This document shows positions 16,535-47,714 of a stretch of 64,000 bases of DNA, one piece after another. Within the stretch, counting starts at the first letter, position 1; every line of letters begins with the position of its first letter. Source of the stretch: an uncultured Alphaproteobacteria bacterium (GTDB lineage: Bacteria; Pseudomonadota; Alphaproteobacteria; Rs-D84). Location of the stretch: contig CAMWON010000003.1 of assembly GCA_947175875.1 (NCBI GenBank), positions 72,746 to 136,745 of the forward strand. Direction: 5' to 3'. A program made the translations under genes and the position numbers. The notes beneath the pieces are model-generated. The model made no database searches and was not told the origin of the DNA. It was given only the letters and a program-made list of their open reading frames with translations.

Positions 16535-16563
16535 TTGCAATAAGATAAAAACCAGCGTATAAT
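16535..16563 (+). promoter_or_regulatory. sigma70-type promoter of tRNA-Gln
   Basis: TTGCAA, a 17-nt spacer, then TATAAT, ending 11 nt before the tRNA 5' end. Confidence 0.55.
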
Positions 16564-16573
16564 CCACGACGCT

Positions 16574-16647
16574 TGGGGCATAGTTTAACGGTAGAACTCC
16601 GGACTCTGACTCCGTCAGTGTTGGTTCGAATCCAGCTGCCCCAACCA
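16574..16647 (+). tRNA. tRNA-Gln (anticodon CTG)
   Basis: Cloverleaf read by hand: 7-bp acceptor stem TGGGGCA/TGCCCCA, anticodon arm CCGGA-CTCTGAC-TCCGT, T-arm GTTGG-TTCGAAT-CCAGC, and a 3' ACCA. Confidence 0.8.
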
Positions 16648-18120
16648 AGATTGACAGCCGTTCAATTCCATCAGGATATTGAACGGTTTTCTTATTGAAT
16701 ATACTAACTTTTTATCTTTTAATTCGCAGTTCGAAAGTAGCAGGTTTATAATTTGGCGTTTTTGTTCTACTTTCGAACTCCGGAATAATTCCGCCGCGTG
16801 GGACGCCACAGCCAGCAAGGATTCCACCGTCGTTATAAATTCGTCATCTGCCTTGGAATGTGCTTCCAGATGCACGCCCACATCATACAGTTCTTTCTCT
16901 ATATCATTCTTTTTGTCGGCATATTCTTCCTGTGTAATGCTACCCGTCAGCAAGAAATCCAACAAGCGGCTTCTTTTGGACTTTAAAGCATCTTGCTTTT
17001 TACGAAGATTGTCTATCTCTGCCAACGCATAGGCATTTTCTGCCTGTGAGATATTGGTCAGGCATTTCGCTACCTCTTGCATAATATCACGCGGAAAGGA
17101 CAGCTTTTTTAATACCTCATCCTGAATCTGTTGAAATAAGACATCTTCATTTACCGCCAGTTGCGTGCAATTCCCCTTAAAATGTGAACAAGATAGGTAT
17201 GTATAGGTCTTTCCGCTGGGCTTTGTCTTGGTGTCGCTGGTAATCGCGCACCCGCAGTCGGCACATTTTATCAGGCCGCGAAACGCATACGGCTTTTCTG
17301 CATATTTAAATCTGGTGCGGTTCTTACCGTTCATTATCGCCTGACACTTATCATACAAAGACTTATCAATCAATGGTTGATAAATATGCGGATAAAGCGC
17401 GCCTTTGACGTTCATCATTCCGTAATAAAAAGGATTGTTTAATATATTGAAAATCGCGGCCTTTGTAATAGGTTTCCCGCTGATTTTGTTTGTCAGCCCC
17501 CATTCGGCAGCATTTTTAACCAGTTCACCAATCGTATACAAGCCAGAGGCATATTCTTCAAATAGCCTTTGTATTCCGGGGGCACGTTCCGGGTCAACAA
17601 TTATAATGGGCTTATTATTGTCATCCCGGCGGTTTAGATAACCCAGCGGAGCCTGACTTTGCCAGATGCCGTGTTTCGTGTTATAGTCAATGCTTCTTTT
17701 TACATTATCCCGAAGATTGCCAACATAGGTTTTGGCGGAAAATACGCCTAAATCCCACATTGCAATCTCATTTGAACTAGAATCGCGATGCAAACGCAGA
17801 TTTTCCCGGATAAAATGCAGTTCCGCCTTGTCCGCTTTGCGTAATTCATCTAATTCAACAGATTCCTTAAAACTGCGCTGGACGCGGTCGATACAATCCG
17901 CAACAATGGCGATTTTTTCCCGTTGTGCTTTGACAAAGTTCAGCATTTCAACGAACTTTTTACGGTCGCCACGCGTTGAGCTTTCGGTTATTTGAAAGGT
18001 TTCCAGCAGTGTCAGCCCATTGCGCTGGATATATTTATTCAAATTTTCCAGCTGTGCATCAATGGACATCCCATTTTCTTGTTCCCGCGACGATACACGC
18101 GCCAATATCACTGCCTTCAT
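16615..18120 (-). CDS. large serine recombinase (site-specific integrase)
   Basis: N-terminal resolvase catalytic domain MKAVILARVSSREQ. Recombinase domain plus Cys-rich zinc ribbon (CADCGC...CSHFKGNC) and a C-terminal coiled coil. The stop codon lies inside the 3' end of tRNA-Gln. Confidence 0.85.
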   Translation of the reverse strand: MKAVILARVSSREQENGMSIDAQLENLNKYIQRNGLTLLETFQITESSTRGDRKKFVEMLNFVKAQREKIAIVADCIDRVQRSFKESVELDELRKADKAELHFIRENLRLHRDSSSNEIAMWDLGVFSAKTYVGNLRDNVKRSIDYNTKHGIWQSQAPLGYLNRRDDNNKPIIIVDPERAPGIQRLFEEYASGLYTIGELVKNAAEWGLTNKISGKPITKAAIFNILNNPFYYGMMNVKGALYPHIYQPLIDKSLYDKCQAIMNGKNRTRFKYAEKPYAFRGLIKCADCGCAITSDTKTKPSGKTYTYLSCSHFKGNCTQLAVNEDVLFQQIQDEVLKKLSFPRDIMQEVAKCLTNISQAENAYALAEIDNLRKKQDALKSKRSRLLDFLLTGSITQEEYADKKNDIEKELYDVGVHLEAHSKADDEFITTVESLLAVASHAAELFRSSKVEQKRQIINLLLSNCELKDKKLVYSIRKPFNILMELNGCQSWLGQLDSNQH

Positions 18121-18253
18121 TACGTATTCTCTTGGTTTTACTTAGATTTATTATACCTTACGAAAGAAACAATACCAGAGTTTATTATCATAAAATGCCA
18201 AGGCTTGAAAAATGGTAATTTTTTCGTATATCATTAACAAAAAGGGACTGTAA

Positions 18254-21200
18254 ATGAAATTAATAACCTCCACAGATTTACAAAATTGGGCAAAAACGCG
18301 CGAGTCAGAGCAATATTTGCCACTTTTGCTTAGAAGGTTGATTATAAATAAAGTGGGCTTTGATAATATACAACATATTACAATACCGGGTGGTGATAGT
18401 ATATGGAAGCCCGGTGTTGATGGAAAGATTCTTACTCGTGTTGATAGCTTGTTGGGCGAAAAAGATAAAACGTACATGGTAGAGTGCGGTCAGTGTGTTG
18501 AAGATAAACAAAAATTTGAAAATGACTTGAAAAAACGAACAGCTCAACTAGGTGGTGTTAAACAAAAAAATTCTGCATTTGTCTTTATAACTACAAATAA
18601 AATCAAAGATTTAAATAGTACGTTAAATGCAACGAAAGAAAAAGTAGAAGGTAGTGATTTATGGGCTGATATCAAATTATATGATGCAGATGACATAGAA
18701 ACTTGGCTTGACAATGATTTTGCAACGTTTGCATGGCTGGCAGATATTATGGGCAAACAGTCTAATGGCTTAAAAGATTTTGATGGTTTTTGGAAAACTT
18801 GGAAAGCTTCTACTGAAATTCCAATTGACGAAGATATAATCTTAGCGCGCGCGAACACTTATCAAAACGAGGTATATAAATTTTTAAAGAAGGCTTCCGG
18901 AGTTTTTCATATAAAATCATTCAGTCGGAAAGAATCTTTATTGTTTTTTATGGCTTCTATATTAAAAGCACATTTTCCAGAGGATGAGATAGATGCAATA
19001 AAATCCAAAATTGTTATAGTTCAGGATGCTGATGTTTGGAATCGTGTGGTTGAGGATGGTGAAGCAAGCAAGTTTATATTTATTCCATTTTTCGGAATAC
19101 CAGAAAATTTGGGCTTTTTAGTGGACAAAGGTTTGCAGATTTTTATACCAATGGGCGAAAATGATGGAAAAGGAACAGAGTCTAATACTGTCCATATAGA
19201 ACCTTTTAATAATGAGATTTTATACAGTGTGCTAGAGAAGAAGTTAAGTTCATATGAAAAAACCAACCAAATTATTAACAAACTGGGGCATAATGGCACA
19301 TTGCTGCATTTACAAAGAATTATGGAACGCAAAGATGTTTCTAGGCCTGCGCCTCAATGGGTAAGTAAAGAAAATTCGGAGATTTTATTGCTAGCTTCAT
19401 TCGTTGGTGGTTGGTCAGACCAAAATACTAAGGACAAAGAAGCGATAGCCAGTATTTTTGGAATGAATTATTCAGAAATAGTAAAGAAGCTATCTTTTTT
19501 TATCAAAACGGAGGAAGCACCCATACGAAAAATAGGCGATATTTGGGAAGTTGGTTCGCCAGATATTATAATTGATTATTTAGGAGGGCATTTGACCGAA
19601 GATACTCTCAAGAGATATCTAAACGAAACTAAGAAGATTTTATCTGAAATAGATTTGCGCTATAATGAACGTGGTACGAGAAATCTTCTAGCTTCTTATG
19701 ATTTTAGCAGTGGAAAACATACATATTATTCAAAAAACTTAATTTGTGGAATTGGAAATGGGTATGCGGCAATTGCCAACAAAGAGAATAAATTTGTAAA
19801 TTTAAACAGTGTTGAATTCAGAATCCAACAAAATGTACAAAAACTCTTAGAAGATAAAAATTGGAAGAAGTGGGCTACTTTAAATCCTATAATGCCTCTA
19901 TTTGCTGAAGCAGCAAAAGAGAAATATTTGGAATTGCTTGAAAATGTTGTTGCAAATACCCCCTCTTTAATAATTGACCTTTATGAGAAAGGCGAGGATA
20001 TGGGGTTTATGGGAGAGTGTCTGTATTCTGGTATTTTATGGGGGCTTGAGAATCTTGCCTGGTTTGAACCATTTTTTATGAGGGTTATTAATATATTGGT
20101 AAAGATGGAAAAAATTAGAAGAGAAAATTTACGATACGGAAATTCTCCAATAGATACTTTAAATCGCATTTTCTGTACGTGGCTTCCAAATACTTTGGTT
20201 GATTTAAATAAACGGCAATTATGCATATCAAATATATTGAGAACAAATAAAAACTCGGATGTTTTATTTAATTTGTTATATAATTTACTGCCAACAGAAC
20301 ACATGACGTGTCAGCCTACCCATAGGCCACATTTTATTGAATTGCACGCCCCAGAACGCGTTTCTCGTCTAGCTATAGGTAAGTTTAATAATTTTATATA
20401 TACAGAAATTATTAATATGATAGGATGCGATAAAGATAAATGGGATAAGGTAATTCGTTATATAACATATATGAATCCAGAAAGATTCGATATGTTTATA
20501 AATACATTAAAATCTATTGATTGGTTGAATGCAGATGCCGAATTAAAAAACTCTGTATATCAGAATTTAGAACATTGGGTTGATTCTGCTCATCGCTGGA
20601 GTGATGAAAACGCACAGAATTGGGGCGCAGCTGAAAAAATAGCCAGAATAAATGATATATTGACGGAACTCATGCCAACTAATCCTATAGATAAGAATAT
20701 ACGTATCTTTTCTAAGTTTTCGGTTTGGAATTATAGAGAGTACTCGGGAAGCCCCAGTCCCAGATTGCAACAAGCCATTCAAGAAATAATTAGTTCTAGC
20801 GGTCTGCAGGGATTGATTGACTTTGCCAAGCAGATTGACGCTGTTGACGTTCTTGGAGAAGAGTTAGCATTATCTAATATATCGATGGCTGATGTTGTAT
20901 GGCTTTTAAATTCTTCCGATAGAAAAGACCCAAAAGTACAAAGATTTTTATCCGTATTGTTTGCGGTTATCATAAATATTAGAGGGCTGAGTTTAGTCGG
21001 TAAGATTTTTAGTGATGATTGGGAAATTGAATATAAGCAGGCTTTGATATGTACTGTAAAAGGTAATGAAGCATATTGGGAATGGGTGGAGAAAAAAGGA
21101 TTTTCTGAATTGTACTGGAAAAACACAGGTGCAATTTGGCCAAATACTGATAAAGAATATGATATTGCAATTAACAAGTTAAAGGAATTTAGGAAGTTTC

Positions 21201-22033
21201 CTGAATTAGCAACTTTACTTGCCATGCAAAATCGTAGACAAAGCGGGGTTAGAACCGAAGATATTGTAGATTTGCTGTTTGGTATAGCAGAGTCTTCAAA
21301 AGAACAACTTAATAATATGGACTGGTATCATATACAGGACTTATTTAAAATTTTACATAAACGTTCCGACATAGATGAAAAAATTATGTTTAATTTAGAA
21401 ATTAATTATTTTGAATTATTTGATGGTTCAAATGAATTAGAGCCGGTATATATCTATAAGCAACTAAAGGCAAATCCAGAGCTGTTCATAGAGGTAATTT
21501 CTTTAATGTTTGCTAAAAAGGAAGAATCTAAAGAAAAAAGTGAAGAAGAACAAAACAGGTTAAAAAATGCTATAAAAATAGCTCAGAAAATGTATTTTAA
21601 ATTAGAAAAAGATTATATATTTAATGATAAATCCGAACTACACAACTGGGTAAAACGTGCTATGGAGTTGTTAGATAAATTAGAGGAAAAGGAATTAAGT
21701 AGCACAGGAATGAGACAAATTGGTGCTATGTTGGCTAATTGTCCGACTGACCCTAATGACGACATTTGGCCTATTGGCTATGTCAGGGAGCTGCTAGAAG
21801 AAGCGTGTAATCGGGATATAATAGAGGGTATAGTTAGGGGAAAATATAATTCCTGTGGGTTCCATTCTGTTGACCGTACGAATCCGGGGGGGTATTGGGA
21901 AGAGAAGGCTATCAAATTTAGAGCAGATGCTGCTTCTATAAGATTTCAATATCCCAAAACAGCAGAAATATTGGATTGTTTGGCCAAAGATTTTGAAATA
22001 AATGCTAAACGAGCCATAACGGATATTATGTAA
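18254..22033 (+). CDS. very large hypothetical protein (1259 aa), AT-rich, mostly alpha-helical
   Basis: Uninterrupted 3.8-kb ORF. It has no P-loop, no HExxH and no obvious nuclease motif. A distinct ~150-aa N-terminal domain is followed by a long helical region. Confidence 0.7.
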   Translation: MKLITSTDLQNWAKTRESEQYLPLLLRRLIINKVGFDNIQHITIPGGDSIWKPGVDGKILTRVDSLLGEKDKTYMVECGQCVEDKQKFENDLKKRTAQLGGVKQKNSAFVFITTNKIKDLNSTLNATKEKVEGSDLWADIKLYDADDIETWLDNDFATFAWLADIMGKQSNGLKDFDGFWKTWKASTEIPIDEDIILARANTYQNEVYKFLKKASGVFHIKSFSRKESLLFFMASILKAHFPEDEIDAIKSKIVIVQDADVWNRVVEDGEASKFIFIPFFGIPENLGFLVDKGLQIFIPMGENDGKGTESNTVHIEPFNNEILYSVLEKKLSSYEKTNQIINKLGHNGTLLHLQRIMERKDVSRPAPQWVSKENSEILLLASFVGGWSDQNTKDKEAIASIFGMNYSEIVKKLSFFIKTEEAPIRKIGDIWEVGSPDIIIDYLGGHLTEDTLKRYLNETKKILSEIDLRYNERGTRNLLASYDFSSGKHTYYSKNLICGIGNGYAAIANKENKFVNLNSVEFRIQQNVQKLLEDKNWKKWATLNPIMPLFAEAAKEKYLELLENVVANTPSLIIDLYEKGEDMGFMGECLYSGILWGLENLAWFEPFFMRVINILVKMEKIRRENLRYGNSPIDTLNRIFCTWLPNTLVDLNKRQLCISNILRTNKNSDVLFNLLYNLLPTEHMTCQPTHRPHFIELHAPERVSRLAIGKFNNFIYTEIINMIGCDKDKWDKVIRYITYMNPERFDMFINTLKSIDWLNADAELKNSVYQNLEHWVDSAHRWSDENAQNWGAAEKIARINDILTELMPTNPIDKNIRIFSKFSVWNYREYSGSPSPRLQQAIQEIISSSGLQGLIDFAKQIDAVDVLGEELALSNISMADVVWLLNSSDRKDPKVQRFLSVLFAVIINIRGLSLVGKIFSDDWEIEYKQALICTVKGNEAYWEWVEKKGFSELYWKNTGAIWPNTDKEYDIAINKLKEFRKFPELATLLAMQNRRQSGVRTEDIVDLLFGIAESSKEQLNNMDWYHIQDLFKILHKRSDIDEKIMFNLEINYFELFDGSNELEPVYIYKQLKANPELFIEVISLMFAKKEESKEKSEEEQNRLKNAIKIAQKMYFKLEKDYIFNDKSELHNWVKRAMELLDKLEEKELSSTGMRQIGAMLANCPTDPNDDIWPIGYVRELLEEACNRDIIEGIVRGKYNSCGFHSVDRTNPGGYWEEKAIKFRADAASIRFQYPKTAEILDCLAKDFEINAKRAITDIM

Positions 22034-22094
22034 TTGTGATTTGTATTGCACATGCAATAAATGACAAAGTGGGGATTTTCCCCACTTTTTGTCT

Positions 22095-22307
22095 TTAATC
22101 TTCATCATCGGCCACATAATTGCCATATCCATAGCGTTCAAGGCCTTCTTCCTTGTAAAGTCTGCGTTTTAATATTGATACCATAATCACAAACAGGAAT
22201 ATGCAGGATAACACAGTCGCGATAAAAGCTATTATCCCCATCGTCTGCACAACTTCTGCTTGATGTTGCATCTTTTCCATTGCGCTTTGTAATAAATATT
22301 CGTTCAT
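22095..22307 (-). CDS. small membrane protein (70 aa)
   Basis: Single strong TM helix IIAFIATVLSCIFLFVIMVSIL. Lies within the island. Confidence 0.4.
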   Translation of the reverse strand: MNEYLLQSAMEKMQHQAEVVQTMGIIAFIATVLSCIFLFVIMVSILKRRLYKEEGLERYGYGNYVADDED

Positions 22308-22331
22308 TTGTTCTCTCCTTTTGATTAAAAA

Positions 22332-22748
22332 CTACATCGCGTCATATATTCCGGCAAGGCCGACATCTGGGATAACAGAATCAACCCTGATGCCACCCGT
22401 ACCAACGTATAGCTCCATAAATTTCCGCCTGCCTTTGGAAATAATTATTTCTGAGCCACCCCTTTGCCACGTTCCTCCGGTTGAGATAACATATTCACCT
22501 GGTTCTAGATTGGTGCAAAAATAAGAACTATTTGGCAGCCTGCCAATATATTCATTATTTGCGTATATGTCATAGGACATTGCCGCACCAACAAAATTTG
22601 AAGCCCGGAACATGCATAACTGGCCGCCACGTGGGTCAATAAAAGGCAATCTGCGTTCAATAACATCGGCCATTTCTGGGGTTAATTGTGATACAGTACC
22701 ACAACCAACCAGTGAAACAGACAAAATAACAAGCAAAATTTTCGTCAT
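22332..22748 (-). CDS. lipoprotein
   Basis: Lipobox LVGC after MTKILLVILSVS. Confidence 0.55.
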   Translation of the reverse strand: MTKILLVILSVSLVGCGTVSQLTPEMADVIERRLPFIDPRGGQLCMFRASNFVGAAMSYDIYANNEYIGRLPNSSYFCTNLEPGEYVISTGGTWQRGGSEIIISKGRRKFMELYVGTGGIRVDSVIPDVGLAGIYDAM

Positions 22749-22763
22749 GAATATACCCCTTGG

Positions 22764-23504
22764 TTAAAACGTGTATTTAATACCGGCCATAAATTGGAAG
22801 TTATGCATTAAAAAGGTATTATCTTTTAATTCTGTATGACCTATGTAGGGAATATCTATGTTATATTTTATAGTAGTCAGCAAAAGACGATATCTCGCTT
22901 CCGGTGTAAAAGAAATATTATCAGACACTTTTATGTCAAGTCCGATACCAATATTTGCGGCAAAGGCGATATCACCGGATTCCATATTGAGATAATCGTA
23001 TTCATCCGAGTCTGAAAACGACATGCTGGCCGCCCCAAGCCCAAGAATTAGGTCAAAATTGACACTATCGCCCATTTTAAAATACGGTATAAAGTTTATG
23101 ACATAGCTCGTATATCCGACATCTGCATGCAGTTTTGAATCCCAGTCATCATCAAATTTGACCTTTGAAGAAGATATATGTGCAACCTCAAACTCTATCC
23201 GCAAAGACGGGTCATAATTCAAATCAACACCGACGGAGCCAGAAAATATGGGGCTACCTTTAGAAAAAGTAAAACCTGCATCACTATCTTCATCTGTATA
23301 TAGCCACCCGTACATTAAATTGTATCCGCCTTTTGCATTAATGTAAAACCTTGTAGGCTTTTTAGCTTTGGTCGGTATGCGCGCCTGTGCGTATGTAGGT
23401 GTCCTATTCGCTTGATAATAATGGCCGCCCCCAGCAGTCGGCAGAACGGCAGCATTTCCTGAATAGGTTCCAAGAATCATTATGGGAATTATTGCTTTTT
23501 TCAT
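22764..23504 (-). CDS. outer-membrane beta-barrel protein (OmpA/Opa-like)
   Basis: The start MKKAIIPIMILGTYSGNAA is a signal peptide with an AGGTGG RBS. Alternating beta-strand pattern with the C-terminal strand AGIKYTF. Confidence 0.6.
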   Translation of the reverse strand: MKKAIIPIMILGTYSGNAAVLPTAGGGHYYQANRTPTYAQARIPTKAKKPTRFYINAKGGYNLMYGWLYTDEDSDAGFTFSKGSPIFSGSVGVDLNYDPSLRIEFEVAHISSSKVKFDDDWDSKLHADVGYTSYVINFIPYFKMGDSVNFDLILGLGAASMSFSDSDEYDYLNMESGDIAFAANIGIGLDIKVSDNISFTPEARYRLLLTTIKYNIDIPYIGHTELKDNTFLMHNFQFMAGIKYTF

Positions 23505-23924
23505 ATAAACCACCTTTCTTATGCAAAAGATGGCGCGGGGAGTTAAAGAAATCACGATAGAATGACCCCGTTGGCCTTTGGGCGATGCCCTGTTGTATAG
23601 CCAACGGCTCCCCGCAGAAGCAGGGATATGTTTTTGTGGTGCATATCCGGCACCATCTATCGCGAGGTTCTTTACGCCTCGGCATCTCTTTTGCGATGCA
23701 CCTTTATATTAACACCAATGGGCAGAAAATCCAACCGAATATTTACCAAGGTGGCTGTTCAACAATCTTTCCTACGTATTCAATTGTTTTTATATCGCCA
23801 TTGCGCATTTTATCAATCAGAGCAGCAGCAATTGCCTCTGTTTGGTTTTTGGGGTTAAAAGCATAAAAAGTTGTATTGTCCATGTTTAACAATTTAATCA
23901 ATATTTCTTGCATATTATGTCCTT

Positions 23925-24623
23925 TTAGTCTGAAAACATTATTTCCGCGGTTTCACGAGATTGCGCCTTGGGGTTAAAGCCGTATTTGTTGCCAGGACCG
24001 GCTTTTTCGTGTTTAATTTCAAGCGCAGTTTCTGCAATTTTGATTTTTTCGGTTATCCCAAGCCATTTCATACATTTTTGTTCTATACGTTTTTCGCGCT
24101 TCTGGTGATGAACCAAGTCGCACTGCAGGCTGGTAAGCCGTTCCTGCCAGTGCTTTAACTTGTTTTTAGCACTCTGTAATGCCCGTTGTCGGTTTGTTGA
24201 CTCTAGGTCAATTATCTGTTGCCCCATTTTTACAATCATTTGTTTACAATCCGCTATCTGGCGTTCGTATAGACTTTCTGTGCGGTATATCCTTTGGATT
24301 TTAGCCCTGTAATGCTCCAGCAGTTCTTCCGCGCTTTTATGAACCATAATACCGGTTGCACACATACGCATATCGTCTGCTTCATCATTTTGCCAACCTT
24401 GGCGCGATTTGCAGTTTGTGGTCGCAATCAAAGCTAAATTTTGTTCATAGGGCTTCAGCGAGTCGTTTACAAAGAATCTCCCTTGTTCTTGGGTATATTC
24501 GCGACGTTTAGCGCGCTCGTTTTCTAGATTCTGCTTCAGCACACTTGGTGCGAAGCTGTGGTTAGGCATTATGGCCATAATGGTTGAATATTCTGCCCAA
24601 AGTTCATAATCCTGCTGTTTCAT
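23925..24623 (-). CDS. hypothetical coiled-coil protein
   Basis: The internal start MKQQDYELWAEY is used. Charged heptad-rich sequence with no enzymatic motif. Confidence 0.45.
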   Translation of the reverse strand: MKQQDYELWAEYSTIMAIMPNHSFAPSVLKQNLENERAKRREYTQEQGRFFVNDSLKPYEQNLALIATTNCKSRQGWQNDEADDMRMCATGIMVHKSAEELLEHYRAKIQRIYRTESLYERQIADCKQMIVKMGQQIIDLESTNRQRALQSAKNKLKHWQERLTSLQCDLVHHQKREKRIEQKCMKWLGITEKIKIAETALEIKHEKAGPGNKYGFNPKAQSRETAEIMFSD

Positions 24624-24782
24624 CGTTGCTATCTCCGGAAACTCTTCCCGCGTGGGGGCGGGGGTTGATGTTGAAAAATTTATTAAAATTGCTCCCGCGG
24701 GTTGGATATTATAAATATATGTTTGACAAGGTCGCAAAAGCGGCTTCAGTCGGTTGTGTTTGTAATGCGTTGTTTAAAACAG

Positions 24783-25034
24783 CTAGGTTATTTGCCGGAC
24801 TTTGTTTAATTTATCATAAATCGCCTGTTCTATAGCATGGCATGTTTGGCGGTTTATCGGATAAAATACGTCAAAACCGTCCTTTTTTGGAAATGTCAAT
24901 CTATAGCCACCGCTTAATCTGGTATAAACACCGATTGAGCCAAGATATAGTGAATTATTCAATACAATGCTTGCAAAGCCGATTAGACCATCATTTGGAC
25001 GCACAAACTGAATCTTTACTTCTGAAATTGTCAT
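24783..25034 (-). CDS. spoVG: SpoVG family protein
   Basis: Aligns with B. subtilis SpoVG along its length: MTISEVKIQFVRPNDGLIGFASIVLNN...FPKKDG...YPIN matches the conserved ...RVNTDGRMRAIASITLD...HPIN pattern. Confidence 0.7.
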   Translation of the reverse strand: MTISEVKIQFVRPNDGLIGFASIVLNNSLYLGSIGVYTRLSGGYRLTFPKKDGFDVFYPINRQTCHAIEQAIYDKLNKVRQIT

Positions 25035-25230
25035 TCATTACTCCCTTTTGTTGTTTGTGAACATCGCTTAAAATCTTTAAAAAAGAAACGAGCCGCACCC
25101 CCGCTTCCGATGCCTCGGCATCGGAAATCGGCTCTGAGTACAGCCCTTTAATCTTTAAAGATAACAGCGTTTGTTCTTCCATAAACAGAACATAACGCAG
25201 GAATTTATAATTTTATGTAGTTCGCTAGCA

Positions 25231-26019
25231 TCAATTTTTTATTACAAGCGTTGTATCATTTGCAAGCCAACGATATATCGTCTCGCGCTCACCGTCTTTT
25301 TTTAACGGCGGGTTCCAGTTGGAGGGTTCATAATATTCCAGCAAAATAATATCAGCTAACTGACGTTTGCTGCGTACTTGTTGTTTGCTGCAAATTTCAT
25401 GCGCTTTGTCTAAAACCCATTTTTGTATAGTTGCTCTCTTTTTTGCGGTGCTGTGTCCGCTTTGGGCACGTTCCTGTCTGATGATTTGTACCAAACATGA
25501 TTCAAAGTCTACATACGTGTCATTCCAAGCGTTTTTTATTTGGTTTATGTGTTCGGCTCTTTGATTCCGAGTGGCATCGGGGTTGTTATTCAACCAAGTC
25601 AGAAAGGCAGAGCATTTATTTAGCATATCATAAAGTGCCCCGGCCGCGCCGATAGTCCACCATTCGCGATAGGTTAATCTTCTAATAGTGGCTCTTTTTC
25701 TTCCTTCTGGCTTGTCTTTAAATATTAAAGAGCCATCAGGATTGTTTTTCATTTTACGAATATCAAACTTTTTGTCCCGGTTTTGGTTTAAATGTTCAGC
25801 CAACACATCTGGTTTAGAGCTGCGTATTTTTACAAGTTTTTTATATCGTTCAACCGCGAGGTTGGTAAGGGGGAATATTCTGTCGTCAAATACGGAATAA
25901 TTCTCCAAAACAGAATTTCCCGTTTTGGGCAGTGGCTGATAGTTATTCAGCAATTCCAAAGCCTTTTTTGTGGCATTTAGCCGCAACTCTACAAAAATAC
26001 GTTTTTTCTTTTTTGTCAT
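25231..26019 (-). CDS. hypothetical protein (262 aa), basic
   Basis: ORF with good coding character and no recognisable motif. Confidence 0.45.
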   Translation of the reverse strand: MTKKKKRIFVELRLNATKKALELLNNYQPLPKTGNSVLENYSVFDDRIFPLTNLAVERYKKLVKIRSSKPDVLAEHLNQNRDKKFDIRKMKNNPDGSLIFKDKPEGRKRATIRRLTYREWWTIGAAGALYDMLNKCSAFLTWLNNNPDATRNQRAEHINQIKNAWNDTYVDFESCLVQIIRQERAQSGHSTAKKRATIQKWVLDKAHEICSKQQVRSKRQLADIILLEYYEPSNWNPPLKKDGERETIYRWLANDTTLVIKN

Positions 26020-26229
26020 TTCATTACGCCTTATTTTTAGCTTATATTCTTATGCTATGGCAGTTTTGGGGCAAATACAAGCTTTCTGGTATATTGCCTA
26101 TATTTTTTATTATCGTGGCTAAACTTAGAATGTCTTTGTAATACGTAGTTCGAAATTCGTTTGCTATCGTCAACCAGAATTCAAACGCCCCTTGTGGGCG
26201 TTTTTATTTGTGTATTCAAAAAAGACGCG

Positions 26230-26283: not shown

Positions 26284-27702
26284 ATGAAGTATTCAGATTC
26301 ATATGATTTTAAGTATAGTGGATTTACCGTATCCCGCTATAATATTGAGGATTATATTGCTGCGTTGCCCGGTAACGGCGGGCGGTTTGGGCGTCGCACC
26401 ATGTACTACCATTCATATGGCATAGTAGAAAGCATGATACGTTCCATTGCGTCCGATGATTTCGAATTTAATCCAAACGACAAGGGTATGTGTCGCCTGT
26501 TGGAGGAAATGATTCGTAAAGGTGGGCACGACCGTGGGGTATATTCGGAAAGTGCGCACATGGCAATGCGTAATTTATGCATCGCCCAGGGAAAAAATCC
26601 GGACAACCATTTGCTGTATGACAAAACTATTTCCGGCAGAATCAGCCAGGCTACGTCAAAAATAAAGGGCCTGTTTGGTTTCGGCAAAAAGAAACATGGC
26701 GCGGCACCGGCGGAATCCGAGCCCGCACAGGTTGTTGATGTGCCCGCTGAATCCACGCCTGTGTCGCACATTGACACCGATGTGGATGTTGCGGTTGAAC
26801 CGGCCCCGGTTCAGCAGCAGACCGTACCCGACACCGTCATTGAACCGGGTGTCGATGTTCCTGCCACTGATGCGGTTGCAGATACGCAGCCCCAAAAATC
26901 ATCCCGCAAAGCTAATATATTGTACAACATGGCGGCAACTGTGGCCGGGATTGCTGCGATTGGCGCTCTTGTTTTGACGGGTGGGCGTGCAAACAATATG
27001 AATGGTGATGCGGCGCCGGTGGATTCGGTACCGACGTTTAAAACAGTGTCTATGGGTGATACATCACGCACCATGACCCAGGTATATAATCTGGGTGACT
27101 TTGCAAATCAGGCCCGTAATGCGACTATCCCGACATTGAATACGGCCAGGGCACCGCGCACACCAGTCACATCGGTACGTCCGGCCACACATGTCGCGCC
27201 GGTCGTAACCTCGGCCGCGCCGGCCAAGAAGGTGACCAAGCGGGCCCCGACCGCATCGCGTGTCGCGACTGATTCCGTAGCGGTACAGTTGACCCGGGCC
27301 AGCAAAAGTTCCCTGAACATTCTGCTGGGGACCAAAAAGGCCGATGAATTGTGCCGTCGTGTGCAGTCCCAGATAGATGCCGGCATTTTTGCCGCGCCGA
27401 ACGGCATGTCGGCCGAACGCATTGCGCATGCCATGACAATGAGCCGTGTATATGAAGGTAAAAGTGTTATTTTGGATGCGTTGAATTCCACGGTCGCGCT
27501 GACCCCGGCCCAACAGGCGGCCTTTAATCAGCATATTGATGAAATCGGCGATATGGGCGTGAAAATCCAAAAACGCATGGCGTCCAAGCATAAGCTGTCA
27601 AATCACAGTCGTTTTGACCGTGCATCCCATGCGCAGCAGACGGTGCATATCAAAAACGTGAAACAATTGAAACAGTTTCGAAAACTGGCACGCACACGCT
27701 GA
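26284..27702 (+). CDS. hypothetical Pro/Ala/Thr/Val-rich protein with one central TM helix
   Basis: The start is set downstream of a terminator-like hairpin at 26185-26208 that lies inside the longer ORF (26161). There is low-complexity PAxxTPV-type sequence and a TM ILYNMAATVAGIAAIGALVL. Confidence 0.45.
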   Translation: MKYSDSYDFKYSGFTVSRYNIEDYIAALPGNGGRFGRRTMYYHSYGIVESMIRSIASDDFEFNPNDKGMCRLLEEMIRKGGHDRGVYSESAHMAMRNLCIAQGKNPDNHLLYDKTISGRISQATSKIKGLFGFGKKKHGAAPAESEPAQVVDVPAESTPVSHIDTDVDVAVEPAPVQQQTVPDTVIEPGVDVPATDAVADTQPQKSSRKANILYNMAATVAGIAAIGALVLTGGRANNMNGDAAPVDSVPTFKTVSMGDTSRTMTQVYNLGDFANQARNATIPTLNTARAPRTPVTSVRPATHVAPVVTSAAPAKKVTKRAPTASRVATDSVAVQLTRASKSSLNILLGTKKADELCRRVQSQIDAGIFAAPNGMSAERIAHAMTMSRVYEGKSVILDALNSTVALTPAQQAAFNQHIDEIGDMGVKIQKRMASKHKLSNHSRFDRASHAQQTVHIKNVKQLKQFRKLARTR

Positions 27703-45379: not shown

Positions 45380-45456
45380 GCGTCCATGGCTCAATTGGAT
45401 AGAGCATCTGACTACGGATCAGAAGGTTGGGGGTTCGAATCCTCCTGGACGCGCCA
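45380..45456 (+). tRNA. tRNA-Arg (anticodon ACG)
   Basis: Acceptor stem GCGTCCA/TGGACGC, anticodon arm TCTGA-CTACGGA-TCAGA, T-loop GGTTCGAATCC, and a 3' GCCA. Confidence 0.85.
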
Positions 45457-45506
45457 GAATTAAACCGACCTTGTGTCGGTTTTAATTTATTAATAAGGGG
45501 GAAAAT

Positions 45507-45848
45507 ATGGCATCAAGTGCGGAATTTATAAAATTTGTTTCAGACCAGGTGTCGACCGCGGGCGACAATATCCGTTATCGCAAAATGTTTGGCGATTATA
45601 TGCTTTATTGTGATGACCGTCCGGTGTTGCTGATATGCGACGACACGGTGTATGTAAAGCAGATTCCCGAAACCATGTCTATATTTGCCGCGCACGGCAT
45701 CACGCCGGATGCGGGCGTTCCGTATAATGGCGCGCGTCCACATTGGATTCTGGACATCGAAAATATTGATTTGTCGGTTGACATGGTGCGTGAACTGGCG
45801 CGCGTATTGCCGGTGCCAAAGCCAAAGAAAAAGAAAGTCTCAAAATAA
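45507..45848 (+). CDS. TfoX N-terminal domain-like protein
   Basis: The 113-aa sequence MASSAEFIKFVSDQVSTAGDNIRYRKMFGDYMLYCDD... resembles the TfoX/Sxy N-terminal domain. It has a lysine-rich tail. Confidence 0.5.
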   Translation: MASSAEFIKFVSDQVSTAGDNIRYRKMFGDYMLYCDDRPVLLICDDTVYVKQIPETMSIFAAHGITPDAGVPYNGARPHWILDIENIDLSVDMVRELARVLPVPKPKKKKVSK

Positions 45849-45851
45849 ACA

Positions 45852-45875
45852 AGCGCCCGTTTGGGCGTTTGTTCT
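45852..45875. terminator. intrinsic terminator AGCGCCCGTTTGGGCGTTTGTTCTT
   Basis: Hairpin plus T-rich tract immediately after the stop. Confidence 0.45.
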
Positions 45876-46051
45876 TATCTGTATATAGCATGTTGATAGT
45901 ACGTAAAAAAATAGTTGTTTTATATGCCTAATTAAAACGTACGTTTCTTTTCAACATAACTTTAACGCCGCAAAAGCGCCCTTGTCAAGCCTGTTTTTAT
46001 GCTGAACATAATCCTAGGTTTTTATGCGTAAAGCAAAAAAAAGGGAAGAGG

Positions 46052-46348
46052 ATGAATAAACGTTTTTTGTTCTATGTTTGCGTGGCGGCCTTTGTCGCCT
46101 TGGCTGGGAATAGGGCATACGGTGCCATAGCATGCAAAGTATATAGTTGTAATGTCGGGTACTTTGCCTCAGAGTATTCCTGTCCCAGATGTCCGGCGCT
46201 GCAGCGTGCAGATGGTGGAATGCAATATGGAATAACAGCATCGGCGGGGCTGTCGGATATTACCGCGTGCTATGTTCCGGCGGGTGTTAAGTATAAAGAT
46301 GCCGTCGGCGAGTTTGAATTCGTATCAAACTGTAATTATTCACGATAA
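46052..46348 (+). CDS. secreted cysteine-rich protein (family member, 98 aa)
   Basis: Signal peptide MNKRFLFYVCVAAFVALAGNRAYG. The C-terminus ITACYVPAGVKYKDAVGEFEFVSNCNYSR shares the CY-P-G ... C-Y motif. Confidence 0.55.
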   Translation: MNKRFLFYVCVAAFVALAGNRAYGAIACKVYSCNVGYFASEYSCPRCPALQRADGGMQYGITASAGLSDITACYVPAGVKYKDAVGEFEFVSNCNYSR

Positions 46349-46362
46349 AGGAGGGAGCGGTA

Positions 46363-46917
46363 ATGGCAAAGCAGATAAAAAGTTTTTGGTTAAAGCTAAC
46401 AGCTTGTTTTTTTACATTGTATTTTGCACCAATCGGTCACTTGATATTGTCGCTGTTTGGCGTACGCACAAATACGGGAAAAGCATATGCGGGAACAGTA
46501 TATTGCGAAAACAATTCTTCGACTAAGCGGGAGTGCGCAGGGCACAGCGGAAATGTTCAGGGCGGTGAGACAATTCGGTGTACGTGTCTTACGAATTCGT
46601 CCATGGTCTATGACCTGGAATGTGTCCCTGAATATCGTGGCGCTTGGAATCATGAATATGAAGAGGCATATTTTAGGGAGAGTGGCTGTTATTCTTTAAA
46701 CGCGTGTTCGCCAAACGGATCAACAAAAGACTGTAGCACAGCGTCGCAATATTGCACCCAGACCTGTACCGGTGGTGTATGGGGGGTAAAAGTATGGGGT
46801 AATTGCAAGTCGGGATATATAAAAATCAATGGTTCTTGTACCGCAGAATGCTCTATTTCCAATGGCAAAGGATATGAAGTTGAAGAAAGCTCTTCGTCGT
46901 CATCTTCTGAAGCATAA
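46363..46917 (+). CDS. secreted cysteine-rich protein with poly-Ser C-terminal tail
   Basis: N-terminal hydrophobic segment, 17 Cys, and an SSSSSSSEA tail. It lies 14 nt after the previous gene, so it is probably co-transcribed. Confidence 0.5.
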   Translation: MAKQIKSFWLKLTACFFTLYFAPIGHLILSLFGVRTNTGKAYAGTVYCENNSSTKRECAGHSGNVQGGETIRCTCLTNSSMVYDLECVPEYRGAWNHEYEEAYFRESGCYSLNACSPNGSTKDCSTASQYCTQTCTGGVWGVKVWGNCKSGYIKINGSCTAECSISNGKGYEVEESSSSSSSEA

Positions 46918-46978
46918 TATATTTGCGCCGGCGTTTGTGTATAACCGTCAGCTGGAGCCGAATTTATGGGCCCCCGAT

Positions 46979-47668
46979 ATGCAGCTGCGCACAATGCCGT
47001 CAAATTCGTTGCAGATGATTGTCTGGCATTATATTGCGTATATGCAAAATGTTGGACTGCCAATCAAAGATGAAGATGTTGTGGATATATTTCTGCATGG
47101 CTCTTCATCAAATTATTATTACGACCCGACCAGCGATATAGATATCTGTATTGTTATGGATATGCGGCGGCTTTCTGATGAATTGCCCGGCATTGATATA
47201 TTTGCGCTGACTACGGCCATGAAAGTTGCATGGCTGCGCAGCCGCAGAATTCGCATATATGGTCGCGGTGTTGATATCAGTATTGTTGACGTGAATCAGC
47301 CGAAGTACGGTCCCGGCATGTACAAGGTCGGTCCGGCGTATTCTTTGCCGCGCGACATGTGGGTTCGGCGTCCCATGCGTCTAAGTAATTCGGAAATTCG
47401 CGTGTTGCGCCGGCGCGCTGGCAAGATATATCGCCGTTATAAAAAATTGTTTCGGGAGTGTTACAAGAATAAAATGTCCGACACGTTTTTGGACACGTTC
47501 CTCTCGCGCCTCTGGTCGGAACGTCGAGAGGCATATTCTTTAAGCCCGCTACAGCCCATCACGCCCGAAACAATGGCGTTCAGAATGATGCGCCGGTGCG
47601 GTGTCTTGAACAAGATAAAGGCGCGCCTGGAAACATTGAAAAATAAAAATTTTACATTGAACGCATAA
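46979..47668 (+). CDS. putative nucleotidyltransferase (Pol-beta superfamily fold)
   Basis: Motif LHGSSSNYYYDPTSDIDICIV fits the NTase h-G-S ... D-h-D-h signature. The start is uncertain because the ORF extends upstream to 46829 into the preceding gene. Confidence 0.45.
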   Translation: MQLRTMPSNSLQMIVWHYIAYMQNVGLPIKDEDVVDIFLHGSSSNYYYDPTSDIDICIVMDMRRLSDELPGIDIFALTTAMKVAWLRSRRIRIYGRGVDISIVDVNQPKYGPGMYKVGPAYSLPRDMWVRRPMRLSNSEIRVLRRRAGKIYRRYKKLFRECYKNKMSDTFLDTFLSRLWSERREAYSLSPLQPITPETMAFRMMRRCGVLNKIKARLETLKNKNFTLNA

Positions 47669-47698
47669 AAAGAAACGCCCGGTCGGGCGTTTCTTTTT
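47667..47698. terminator. bidirectional intrinsic terminator AAAAAGAAACGCCCGGTCGGGCGTTTCTTTTT
   Basis: Perfect extended palindrome between convergent genes. Confidence 0.55.
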
Positions 47699-47714
47699 AT
47701 TTTATAAGCATGGA

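Follow-up and report, generated by a model that had tools for sequence, protein, structure and literature searches.

We found that a large serine recombinase (LSR) gene and a tRNA-Gln gene, which overlap on opposite strands in a 64,000-nucleotide stretch of DNA from an uncultured alphaproteobacterium (contig CAMWON010000003.1, positions 72,746 to 136,745; hereafter, the window), form one end of a genomic island. The initial annotation of this DNA had regarded the pair as the integration module of such an island inserted at tRNA-Gln, and comparison with related genomes supports this central interpretation. It is very probable that the island is a 9.5-kb integrative element that was placed at the extreme 3' end of tRNA-Gln(CTG) by its own LSR, as modelled below.

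ARAGORN called tRNA-Gln(CTG) at 16574-16647 on the plus strand. The match to the Rfam tRNA model (RF00005, 62.9 bits) covers 16574-16644, and the encoded CCA occupies 16645-16647; the gene forms the B arm of attL. The LSR open reading frame (ORF) extends over 16615-18120 on the minus strand and, read in the integrated state, encodes 501 amino acid residues. Its stop codon, at 16615-16617 (TCA on the plus strand), lies 33 nt inside the 3' end of tRNA-Gln on the opposite strand, as had been stated. The final ten codons read W-LGQLDSNQH and correspond, as reverse complement, to the CCA, the 3' strand of the acceptor, and the T arm of the tRNA. The Trp codon TGG complements the CCA, and the remaining tail, LGQLDSNQH with its stop codon (16615-16644, minus strand), would have been gained on integration.

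The initial annotation had also described the enzyme as a serine recombinase with a catalytic S10 and a zinc ribbon, and this was borne out. Three Pfam domains were found: Resolvase (PF00239, residues 3-151, E 2.6e-14), Recombinase (PF07508, residues 177-265, E 2.8e-10), and Zn_ribbon_recom (PF13408, residues 280-336, E 2.5e-08), the latter two above the gathering score. R8 and S10 are invariant in family alignments of 42 and 67 sequences, and C286 and C311 are conserved in the family alignment. In PHROGs, the protein matches the integrase family phrog_95 (E 1e-64). The coiled-coil region of the A118 integrase aligns with the window LSR, and the AlphaFold2 model of a 60% identical homologue, P0013, has long helices at residues 344-391 and 397-422. 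The best NCBIfam match is the CcrB model, with 75 bits against a cut-off of 900, and the score for XisF is 70 against 375. By every sequence criterion, the protein is thus a large serine recombinase that falls outside the named CcrA/B/C and XisF equivalogs. The ORF is full length and R8 and S10 are present, which speaks against a pseudogene with disrupted catalytic residues.

The same arrangement recurs throughout the family. In most sampled sequences among the 1,647 homologues obtained by protein search, the conserved core stops at a TGG (Trp) codon that reverse-complements the CCA of the tRNA. Tails of the form W-x4-DSN, in which DSN is encoded by GAT TCG AAC, the reverse complement of the T-loop, were seen in 63 of the 120 listed homologues; 24 others stop within five codons of the Trp, and about 20 have other tails. 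The short tails (WLGD*, WLPG*, and the like) were considered as free forms and rejected, since these are integrated copies in which the tRNA complement has an early stop. In a metagenome survey of 80 loci, 27 had an opposite-strand tRNA at the Trp codon, with the Trp codon and CCA at offset 0 in 26, and about a dozen further loci read into tRNA genes without an encoded CCA. Because this register recurs in 26 of the 27 tRNA-bearing loci, the overlap of the LSR with tRNA-Gln is not due to chance. Eleven kinds of tRNA are targeted (Gln, Asn, Lys, Asp, Ser, Arg, Pro, Tyr, Leu, Ile, and Met), and the tail of the integrated form varies with the targeted tRNA among relatives.

The family is present across many phyla. 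IMG/VR viral contigs show the LSR-tRNA arrangement, with family members in contigs of 20-47 kb. The closest entries in the phage collection, MT836653 and MT837677 (GenBank 'Bacteriophage sp.', unannotated), are integrated copies on tRNA-Glu and tRNA-Leu, respectively. Among cultured bacteria, Legionella adelaidensis NCTC12735 has a family LSR at tRNA-Asn(GTT) (L247, NZ_LR134433.1 249461-256954), and its gene occupies 252461-253960 of that record. Integrases of isolated phages are at most 22-25% identical to the window LSR; thus, the family is experimentally uncharacterised.

Island boundaries and attachment sites

The tRNA-Gln 3' 30-mer has no second copy elsewhere in the window, even with up to three mismatches allowed, so the far end of the island was located by comparison with relatives. 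Two close homologues of the LSR also lie on tRNA-Gln(CTG): P0002 (92% identical; loci L003-L005, from three samples) and P0007 (82% identical; L006). In three independent islands, those of the window, L003, and L006, the far end is alike and consists, in the orientation of the LSR, of a host rho-independent terminator, TGGTTG, and then a conserved arm, ACGATA..AACGAATT.CG.AC. The attL core, CAACCA at 16642-16647 (tRNA nt 71-76), is shared with the attR core at 26171-26176, which has the conserved P arm on its left and host sequence on its right; attL and attR have only these 6 bp in common. Measured between equivalent core positions, the island covers about 16644-26172, or 9,529 bp. The GC content is 0.33-0.42 across 18001-26000 and about 0.50-0.56 in the flanks. 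Just to the right of attR lies the native terminator of tRNA-Gln, now orphaned (26183-26203, plus strand; an 8-bp stem and a T-run, -13.1 kcal/mol). The comparison with relatives that the initial annotation called for thus defined both attL and attR.

The tRNA-insertion signature usually called classic is that of tyrosine integrases, which duplicate a fragment of the tRNA. The initial annotation saw this signature in the window, and the claim held only in part: the island is at a tRNA gene, which is whole, but the shared core is 6 bp and no tRNA fragment is duplicated. We looked for a long direct repeat of the tRNA 3' end that would mark the far boundary, and the tyrosine-type model was dropped when none was found in the window.

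The empty-site variants that had been sought are present in related genomes of gut alphaproteobacteria. A scan of species-representative genomes with the tRNA-Gln 3' 25-mer gave 121 sites in metagenome-assembled genomes of these bacteria, many labelled Candidatus Enterousia. Most of the sites are empty, and the CCA is directly followed by (A)AAATTCAAAC-hairpin-TTTTT, as in the right flank of the window. In one of them (L010), 32 nt identical to window 26178-26209, spanning the native terminator, directly follow tRNA-Gln. Both flanks of the window are present in the empty, syntenic L116, and in L092, also empty and syntenic, the ATPase flank (90% amino acid identity) starts less than 100 nt past the tRNA terminator. 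At 83 of the sites, the downstream sequence reaches 1.6 kb or more; a full LSR is present at four of these and fragments at another four. The reconstructed junctions are ...GAACGGCTGTCAATCTTGGTTGACGATAGCAAACGAATTTCGAAC... for attP and ...CCAGCTGCCCCAACCAGAATTCAAACGCCCC... for attB.

On paper, and in the orientation of the LSR, attB reads ...terminator GAATTC TGGTTG GGGCAGCTGGATTCGAACC..., and attP reads ...AACGGCTGTCAATCT TGGTTG ACGATAGCAAACGAATTTCGAAC.... We scanned eight attP sequences for inverted symmetry, three of them reconstructed and five taken as they stand in viral contigs. There was a single peak, with the central dinucleotide at nt 5-6 counted from the T of TGG (88 matches, compared with 43-76 at other positions). 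This dinucleotide corresponds to tRNA nt 71-72 at the inner edge of the shared core, so that the CA at 16642-16643 is the most likely crossover. Two other placements were rejected. A crossover at the last A of CCA and the next base, where there is a local GTCAA/TTGAC inverted repeat, is disfavoured by the symmetry scan and by the published motif windows described below, and one at the TT of AGATTGAC / GAATTC would make the attP spacers differ in length among the three islands. The first base past the attR core, 26177, is G in the window and A in most related empty sites. We had considered that this G might be a core mutation that 'locked' the element, and this idea was withdrawn along with the A-A crossover placement; with the crossover at nt 5-6, the G is not part of the central dinucleotide and should be no obstacle to excision.

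A 7-bp motif occurs on both sides of the reaction. The T-loop sequence GTTCGAA at 16624-16630, which reads TTCGAAC on the LSR strand, lies at nt 18-24 from the T of TGG, and it is found at this position in 26 of 28 non-redundant integrated loci. In the P arm, GTTCGAA at 26148-26154 reads TTCGAAC at nt 23-29, and T(T/G/C)CGAAC occupies nt 23-29 in the motif-carrying free forms of diverse clades. With the centre at nt 5-6, the motif covers half-site positions 17-23 in attP and 12-18 in attB. For the A118 integrase, Rutherford et al. (PMC3783163) placed the zinc-ribbon motif at bp 16-24 of the attP half-site and bp 11-19 of the attB half-site, and proposed that the 5-bp shift underlies the discrimination between attP and attB. 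Our positions fall inside both windows. The simplest reading is that the zinc ribbon probably recognizes the T-loop DNA of the tRNA as its attB motif and a mimic of it, shifted by +5 bp, in attP. A T-loop that serves as the docking motif would explain why the LSR family switches easily among tRNA species.

In our model, recombination would occur within CAACCA, which includes the CCA, most probably with the CA of nt 71-72 as the crossover. As the cut would lie in the last five or six bases of the tRNA, the element would need to supply little more than an identical ACCA, which leaves the tRNA intact; no long repeat would arise. The LSR would treat the tRNA gene as an ordinary attB half-site, its zinc ribbon contacting the TTCGAAC of the universally conserved T-loop DNA, and attP would bear a copy of this motif 5 bp further out, as in LSR attP sites.

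Integration also parts the tRNA from its terminator. Directly after the tRNA and inside the LSR coding sequence, a hairpin at 16653-16691 (plus strand) is followed by UUUUCUUAUU. The hairpin folds at -18.8 kcal/mol (z -5.07) and is probably, to judge from its sequence and position, a replacement for the terminator displaced by integration; the U-run and hairpin encoded in the last LSR codons would then stand in for it. The stretch of 60 nt just past the tRNA has a mean folding energy of -14.0 kcal/mol in 47 non-redundant integrated loci, compared with -7.5 kcal/mol for control windows of the same ORFs (Wilcoxon p 7e-11), and many of these structures are a plain stem with a T-run. The stem in the window partly reflects the conserved KPF codons of the LSR protein.

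The integrase reading frame across attP

The P arm continues the LSR ORF in frame, so that integration swaps the C-terminus of the protein. The tail of the free form, detached by integration, is an open frame of W, 43 codons, and a stop at 26042-26176 (minus strand) in the P arm of attR. With this tail, the free form of the LSR would have 535 residues. Open tail frames are found at attR in all three islands, with 44 codons in the window, 38 in L003, and 34 in L006. The first 18 or so codons are conserved as WLTI.NE(F/L)RT(T/V)YY.D(I/V), and the differences among the three tails are concentrated at third codon positions. The circular form would accordingly produce an LSR with a helical C-terminal extension of about 34-44 residues encoded through attP, and integration would replace this extension with a peptide from the reverse complement of the tRNA, LGQLDSNQH in the present case.

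We compared 27 free-form tails, which are 12-51 residues long (mean 34). All of them have W1, R9, and T10, with hydrophobic residues at positions 4, 5, and 8 and, in most cases, D at position 6. The length is at least 28 residues in 25 of the 27 lineages, though the sequences are unalignable, and conservation reaches tail residues 14-19, past the normal LSR footprint. These two features argue that the extension is translated and maintained. The homologue P0013 carries a matching tail, WLGIVDDLRTVYYADIMN..., and its ORF reads through attP. It is encoded on L244, a contig of 7,071 bp; the two ends repeat the same 30 bp, which is consistent with a circle, as expected from assembly with k = 31. 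In the AlphaFold2 model, the P0013 tail forms helices at residues 494-501 and 504-542, with block pLDDT values of 56-77, and 47 for residues 531-540.

Some free-form tails end in -LAA, -IAA, -VAA, or -EAA, resembling an ssrA tag (L130, L138, L142, L143, L150, P0070, P0112, and P0118); the clade of the window has no such ending. A tentative and rather doubtful idea is that the integrase senses its own integration state, the tail swap switching either the stability of the integrase or the direction in which it recombines. The free element would make an LSR with the conserved helical extension of about 34 residues, ending like a ClpXP tag in several viral clades, and the integrated element would make an LSR that lacks it, a protein-level counterpart of the sib retroregulation of phage lambda. 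In lambda, integration at attP parts int from a downstream RNA processing site outside the ORF. The likeness is that the int product depends on the integration state; here, the separated part is C-terminal coding sequence. By this analogy, a regulatory effect of the tail swap can be hypothesized, and if the swap is functional, it would add an unexplored level of control.

Alternative explanations and known systems

The tRNA found intact by ARAGORN and Rfam would also fit a classic island of the tyrosine-integrase type, with an element-borne copy of the tRNA 3' end and the displaced fragment at the far end. However, the enzyme is a serine recombinase, the window holds no further tRNA 3' 30-mer, and the identity of attL and attR ends after 6 bp, all of which make such an island extremely unlikely. 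Nor do we find it credible, except by the barest margin, that the LSR belongs to an element integrated elsewhere, or is a host recombinase, and merely runs into the tRNA. Convergent genes can overlap the ends of tRNA genes by chance, and the tRNA-encoded tail has no conserved sequence across clades, but a fortuitous overlap would not give the Trp/CCA offset of 0 in all but one of the 27 loci, over eleven tRNA species and many phyla, or an attR with the tRNA's own terminator beyond it and empty sites in relatives.

Whether the element is still active, and of what kind it is, are separate matters. It is quite unlikely that the island is a decayed, immobile relic, in which the LSR or its sites are defunct and the element has become fixed host DNA. 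Decayed LSR fragments do occur at the same tRNA in L108, L007, and L066, position 26177 differs from most related empty sites, and neither a circular form nor an empty site of the same species was recovered. Against this, the full-length ORF has all domains with the invariant R8 and S10, neither core is damaged, the motif of the P arm has the right offset, the 44 codons of the detached tail still form an open frame, and LSRs that are 82-94% identical are accompanied by entirely different cargo. We infer from these features that the window island may well be mobile at present. A prophage or phage satellite, rather than a plain genomic island, is also unlikely, though the idea gains something from the family members inside viral contigs of 20-47 kb, from the full-length PHROG match of the 1259-residue cargo protein, and from the match of the LSR to phrog_95. 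The island is only 9.5 kb long and has no capsid, tail, terminase, replication, or lysis genes by Pfam or PHROGs, and its sister islands carry toxin-antitoxin-like and membrane-protein cargo instead.

Several observations weigh against the model of a tRNA-targeting LSR with an exchangeable tail. We found no convincing symmetric motif at the expected offset in the host-side half-site (B') downstream of the tRNA. The exact crossover dinucleotide is placed by symmetry and by the limits of shared identity. Some subclades, with tails such as WFDFDKSD... and WPQIAVDN..., have neither a tRNA nor the motif. In the clade of the window, the tails diverge completely past about 18 codons, and R9-T10 of the tail are encoded by T(T/G/C)CGAAC, so that the invariant R-T may reflect the DNA motif and not selection on the protein. 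Neither a circular junction from the species of the window nor a match to the attP junction pattern in IMG/VR was found, and no empty site of the same species was obtained, as a look-up with the flanking MGMT protein gave the source contig alone. No defence (PADLOC), conjugation, replication, or virion genes were recognised among the island ORFs (Pfam, PHROGs, NCBIfam), and no recombination directionality factor was found among them by homology.

The large serine integrases characterized so far are known to use protein-coding genes as targets, with attP lying beyond the int ORF; in the window, attB is the 3' end of a tRNA gene and attP lies inside the ORF. The window LSR has the same domain order as the A118, phiC31, and Bxb1 integrases (resolvase, recombinase, and zinc ribbon, the last with a probable coiled coil). 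As in these systems, the att sites are short and share no long identity, and, as with A118 itself, the outer motif is displaced outward by 5 bp in attP relative to attB (PMC3783163). The sequence similarity to 4KIS/6DNW is weak (E about 1e-4). Islander-type tRNA islands resemble the present one in insertion at the 3' end of a tRNA gene, an integrase gene at the tRNA-side end, a functional tRNA, and low-GC cargo. They differ in having a tyrosine enzyme, a displaced tRNA fragment, and a core of tens of bp; the window island lacks both defining features, and its core is 6 bp.

The arrangement of attP inside int, with a tRNA target, is known from archaeal tyrosine integrases of the SSV1 type, in which the gene is split mid-way and inactivated by integration. 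The likeness is one of arrangement only. Unlike these enzymes, the window LSR exchanges just its last 34-44 or so codons, and the catalytic and DNA-binding domains remain. The Ccr enzymes of SCCmec, which are also large serine recombinases, direct insertion to the 3' end of rlmH. In both cases, an LSR island occupies the outermost 3' end of a conserved housekeeping gene and leaves the gene undestroyed, but the SCCmec target is a protein-coding gene and that of the window LSR is a tRNA, and the CcrB score is far below the cut-off.

The Islander paper (PMC4383910) states that no serine integrases were known to use tRNA genes as targets. In their large LSR survey, Durrant et al. make no mention of tRNA, and a provirus survey of 2026 reports that serine integrases prefer coding sequences. 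As serine integrases were reported not to use tRNA genes, the conclusion of the initial annotation is right on grounds less ordinary than those it assumed. The literature that we searched, which did not reach the contents of TIGER 2020, holds no prior description of an LSR family that targets tRNA ends, and some of the cases may already be catalogued in island databases without description.

If the model is true, it would overturn the working rule, built into software such as Islander, that only tyrosine integrases use tRNA genes, and it would account for islands that lack the tRNA-fragment signature and are hence missed by detection. It would also provide a concrete, testable recognition logic, in which a universally conserved 7-bp tRNA motif is read at a given offset in the host site and another 5 bp outward in the element; this would explain how the family came to spread over many phyla and no fewer than eleven tRNA species. 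For the insertion of large DNA, serine integrases are the principal tools. Predictable short att sites in genes of every bacterium would be ready-made landing pads for genome engineering.

Cargo genes and minor observations

The initial annotation had described the cargo as AT-rich and full of orphan genes, and this agrees with the GC content given above and with the finding that five of the eight cargo ORFs scanned had no Pfam match. Next to the LSR gene, a protein of 1259 residues (18254-22033, plus strand) matches phrog_18693, a family of unknown function, over its full length (E 3e-91), and it has no Pfam, PADLOC, or NCBIfam match. On the minus strand, source-record gene calls, Pfam, and PHROGs give a 70-residue ORF, a DUF2846 lipoprotein (22332-22748), an OMP beta-barrel protein (22764-23555), and ORFs of 56 and 232 residues within 22095-24623. 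These are followed, also on the minus strand, by an 83-residue SpoVG-like protein (24783-25034; PF04026, E 2.3e-07), a conserved ORF of about 50-63 residues (24991-25182), and a 262-residue ORF from the ORF list (25231-26019), which adjoins attR and, once the element is circular, would come immediately after the LSR. The last is 47% identical to its L003 counterpart over 68 residues, a partial match, and has no family match.

The search for a partner directionality factor had a mixed outcome. Homology gave none; the ORF at 24991-25182, however, is the only gene besides the LSR that is common to the window, L003, L006, and the circular L244 (50-64% identity). It has no match in NCBIfam and other family searches, and its conservation makes it a natural candidate for a recombination directionality factor or a regulator. 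The islands of the window, L003, and L006 share just the LSR, the P arm, and this ORF. Wholly different cargo beside LSRs that are 82-94% identical implies recent turnover. In the Legionella locus, the genes ahead of the LSR encode a small hypothetical protein, a SpoVG-family protein, an HTH protein, and a tyrosine recombinase, and the pairing of a small ORF with SpoVG echoes window 24783-25182.

No relaxase, coupling protein, or type IV secretion gene was found in the island ORFs with Pfam and NCBIfam; with five ORFs matchless, a novel relaxase may be among them. PHROGs gave only the integrase, one family of unknown function, and the lipoprotein, and thus no virion, packaging, or lysis genes. 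No island ORF matched a tyrosine recombinase (Phage_integrase), and the LSR is the only recombinase in the island.

Upstream of tRNA-Gln, a consensus scan found a promoter-like TTGCAA-17-TATAAT at 16535-16563 (plus strand) with 10 of 12 matches, which is weak evidence for a promoter. Elsewhere in the window, the GC content dips to 0.46 at 45380-47700, after tRNA-Arg(ACG), where the ORFs include Cys-rich, secreted-looking proteins and no integrase. Between the tRNA-Gln terminator and the P-type ATPase gene, a 471-residue ORF (26287-27702, plus strand) has a Pro/Ala/Val-rich middle and no Pfam match. It is absent from L092 and L116, in which the ATPase gene lies within about 100-300 nt of the terminator, and it may represent an insertion that is specific to this lineage and has no relation to the LSR island.

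Other tRNA-Gln sites varied in the sequence downstream of the CCA. In L015, L024, L037, L038, L049, L072, L086, L094, L096, and L108, the CCA is followed by AGAT(T/A)(G/A)ACAA, a GC-rich hairpin, a T-run, and ...AGTTCGAAAGT. These sequences resemble a decayed LSR 3' end in which the hairpin was kept. As a general explanation of the widespread 'AGATTGACAA + hairpin' after tRNA-Gln, decayed LSR ends found little support, since significant protein similarity was seen in L108 only. In L042, L044, L045, L047, L052, L071, and L101, the terminator is followed by an inverted copy of the 3' 14 nt of tRNA-Gln itself (ATCCAGCTGCCCCA), and together they form a long palindrome.

The locus of a 75% identical LSR (P0008; L002 2790-2840) has only TGGTTGGGGC in common with the tRNA-Gln end and then diverges, so that 10 nt of the tRNA are kept. 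It has no tRNA, and TTCGAAC is at neither offset; the locus may represent an attL that was cut short, or else a secondary site. Beside the LSR island in L003, a tandem remnant at 1776-2703 has a second attR-like site at 1776, consisting of a terminator, TGGTTG, and a different arm, and a 21-nt fragment of the tRNA-Gln 3' end lies at position 2531. This remnant suggests successive insertions at one tRNA gene.

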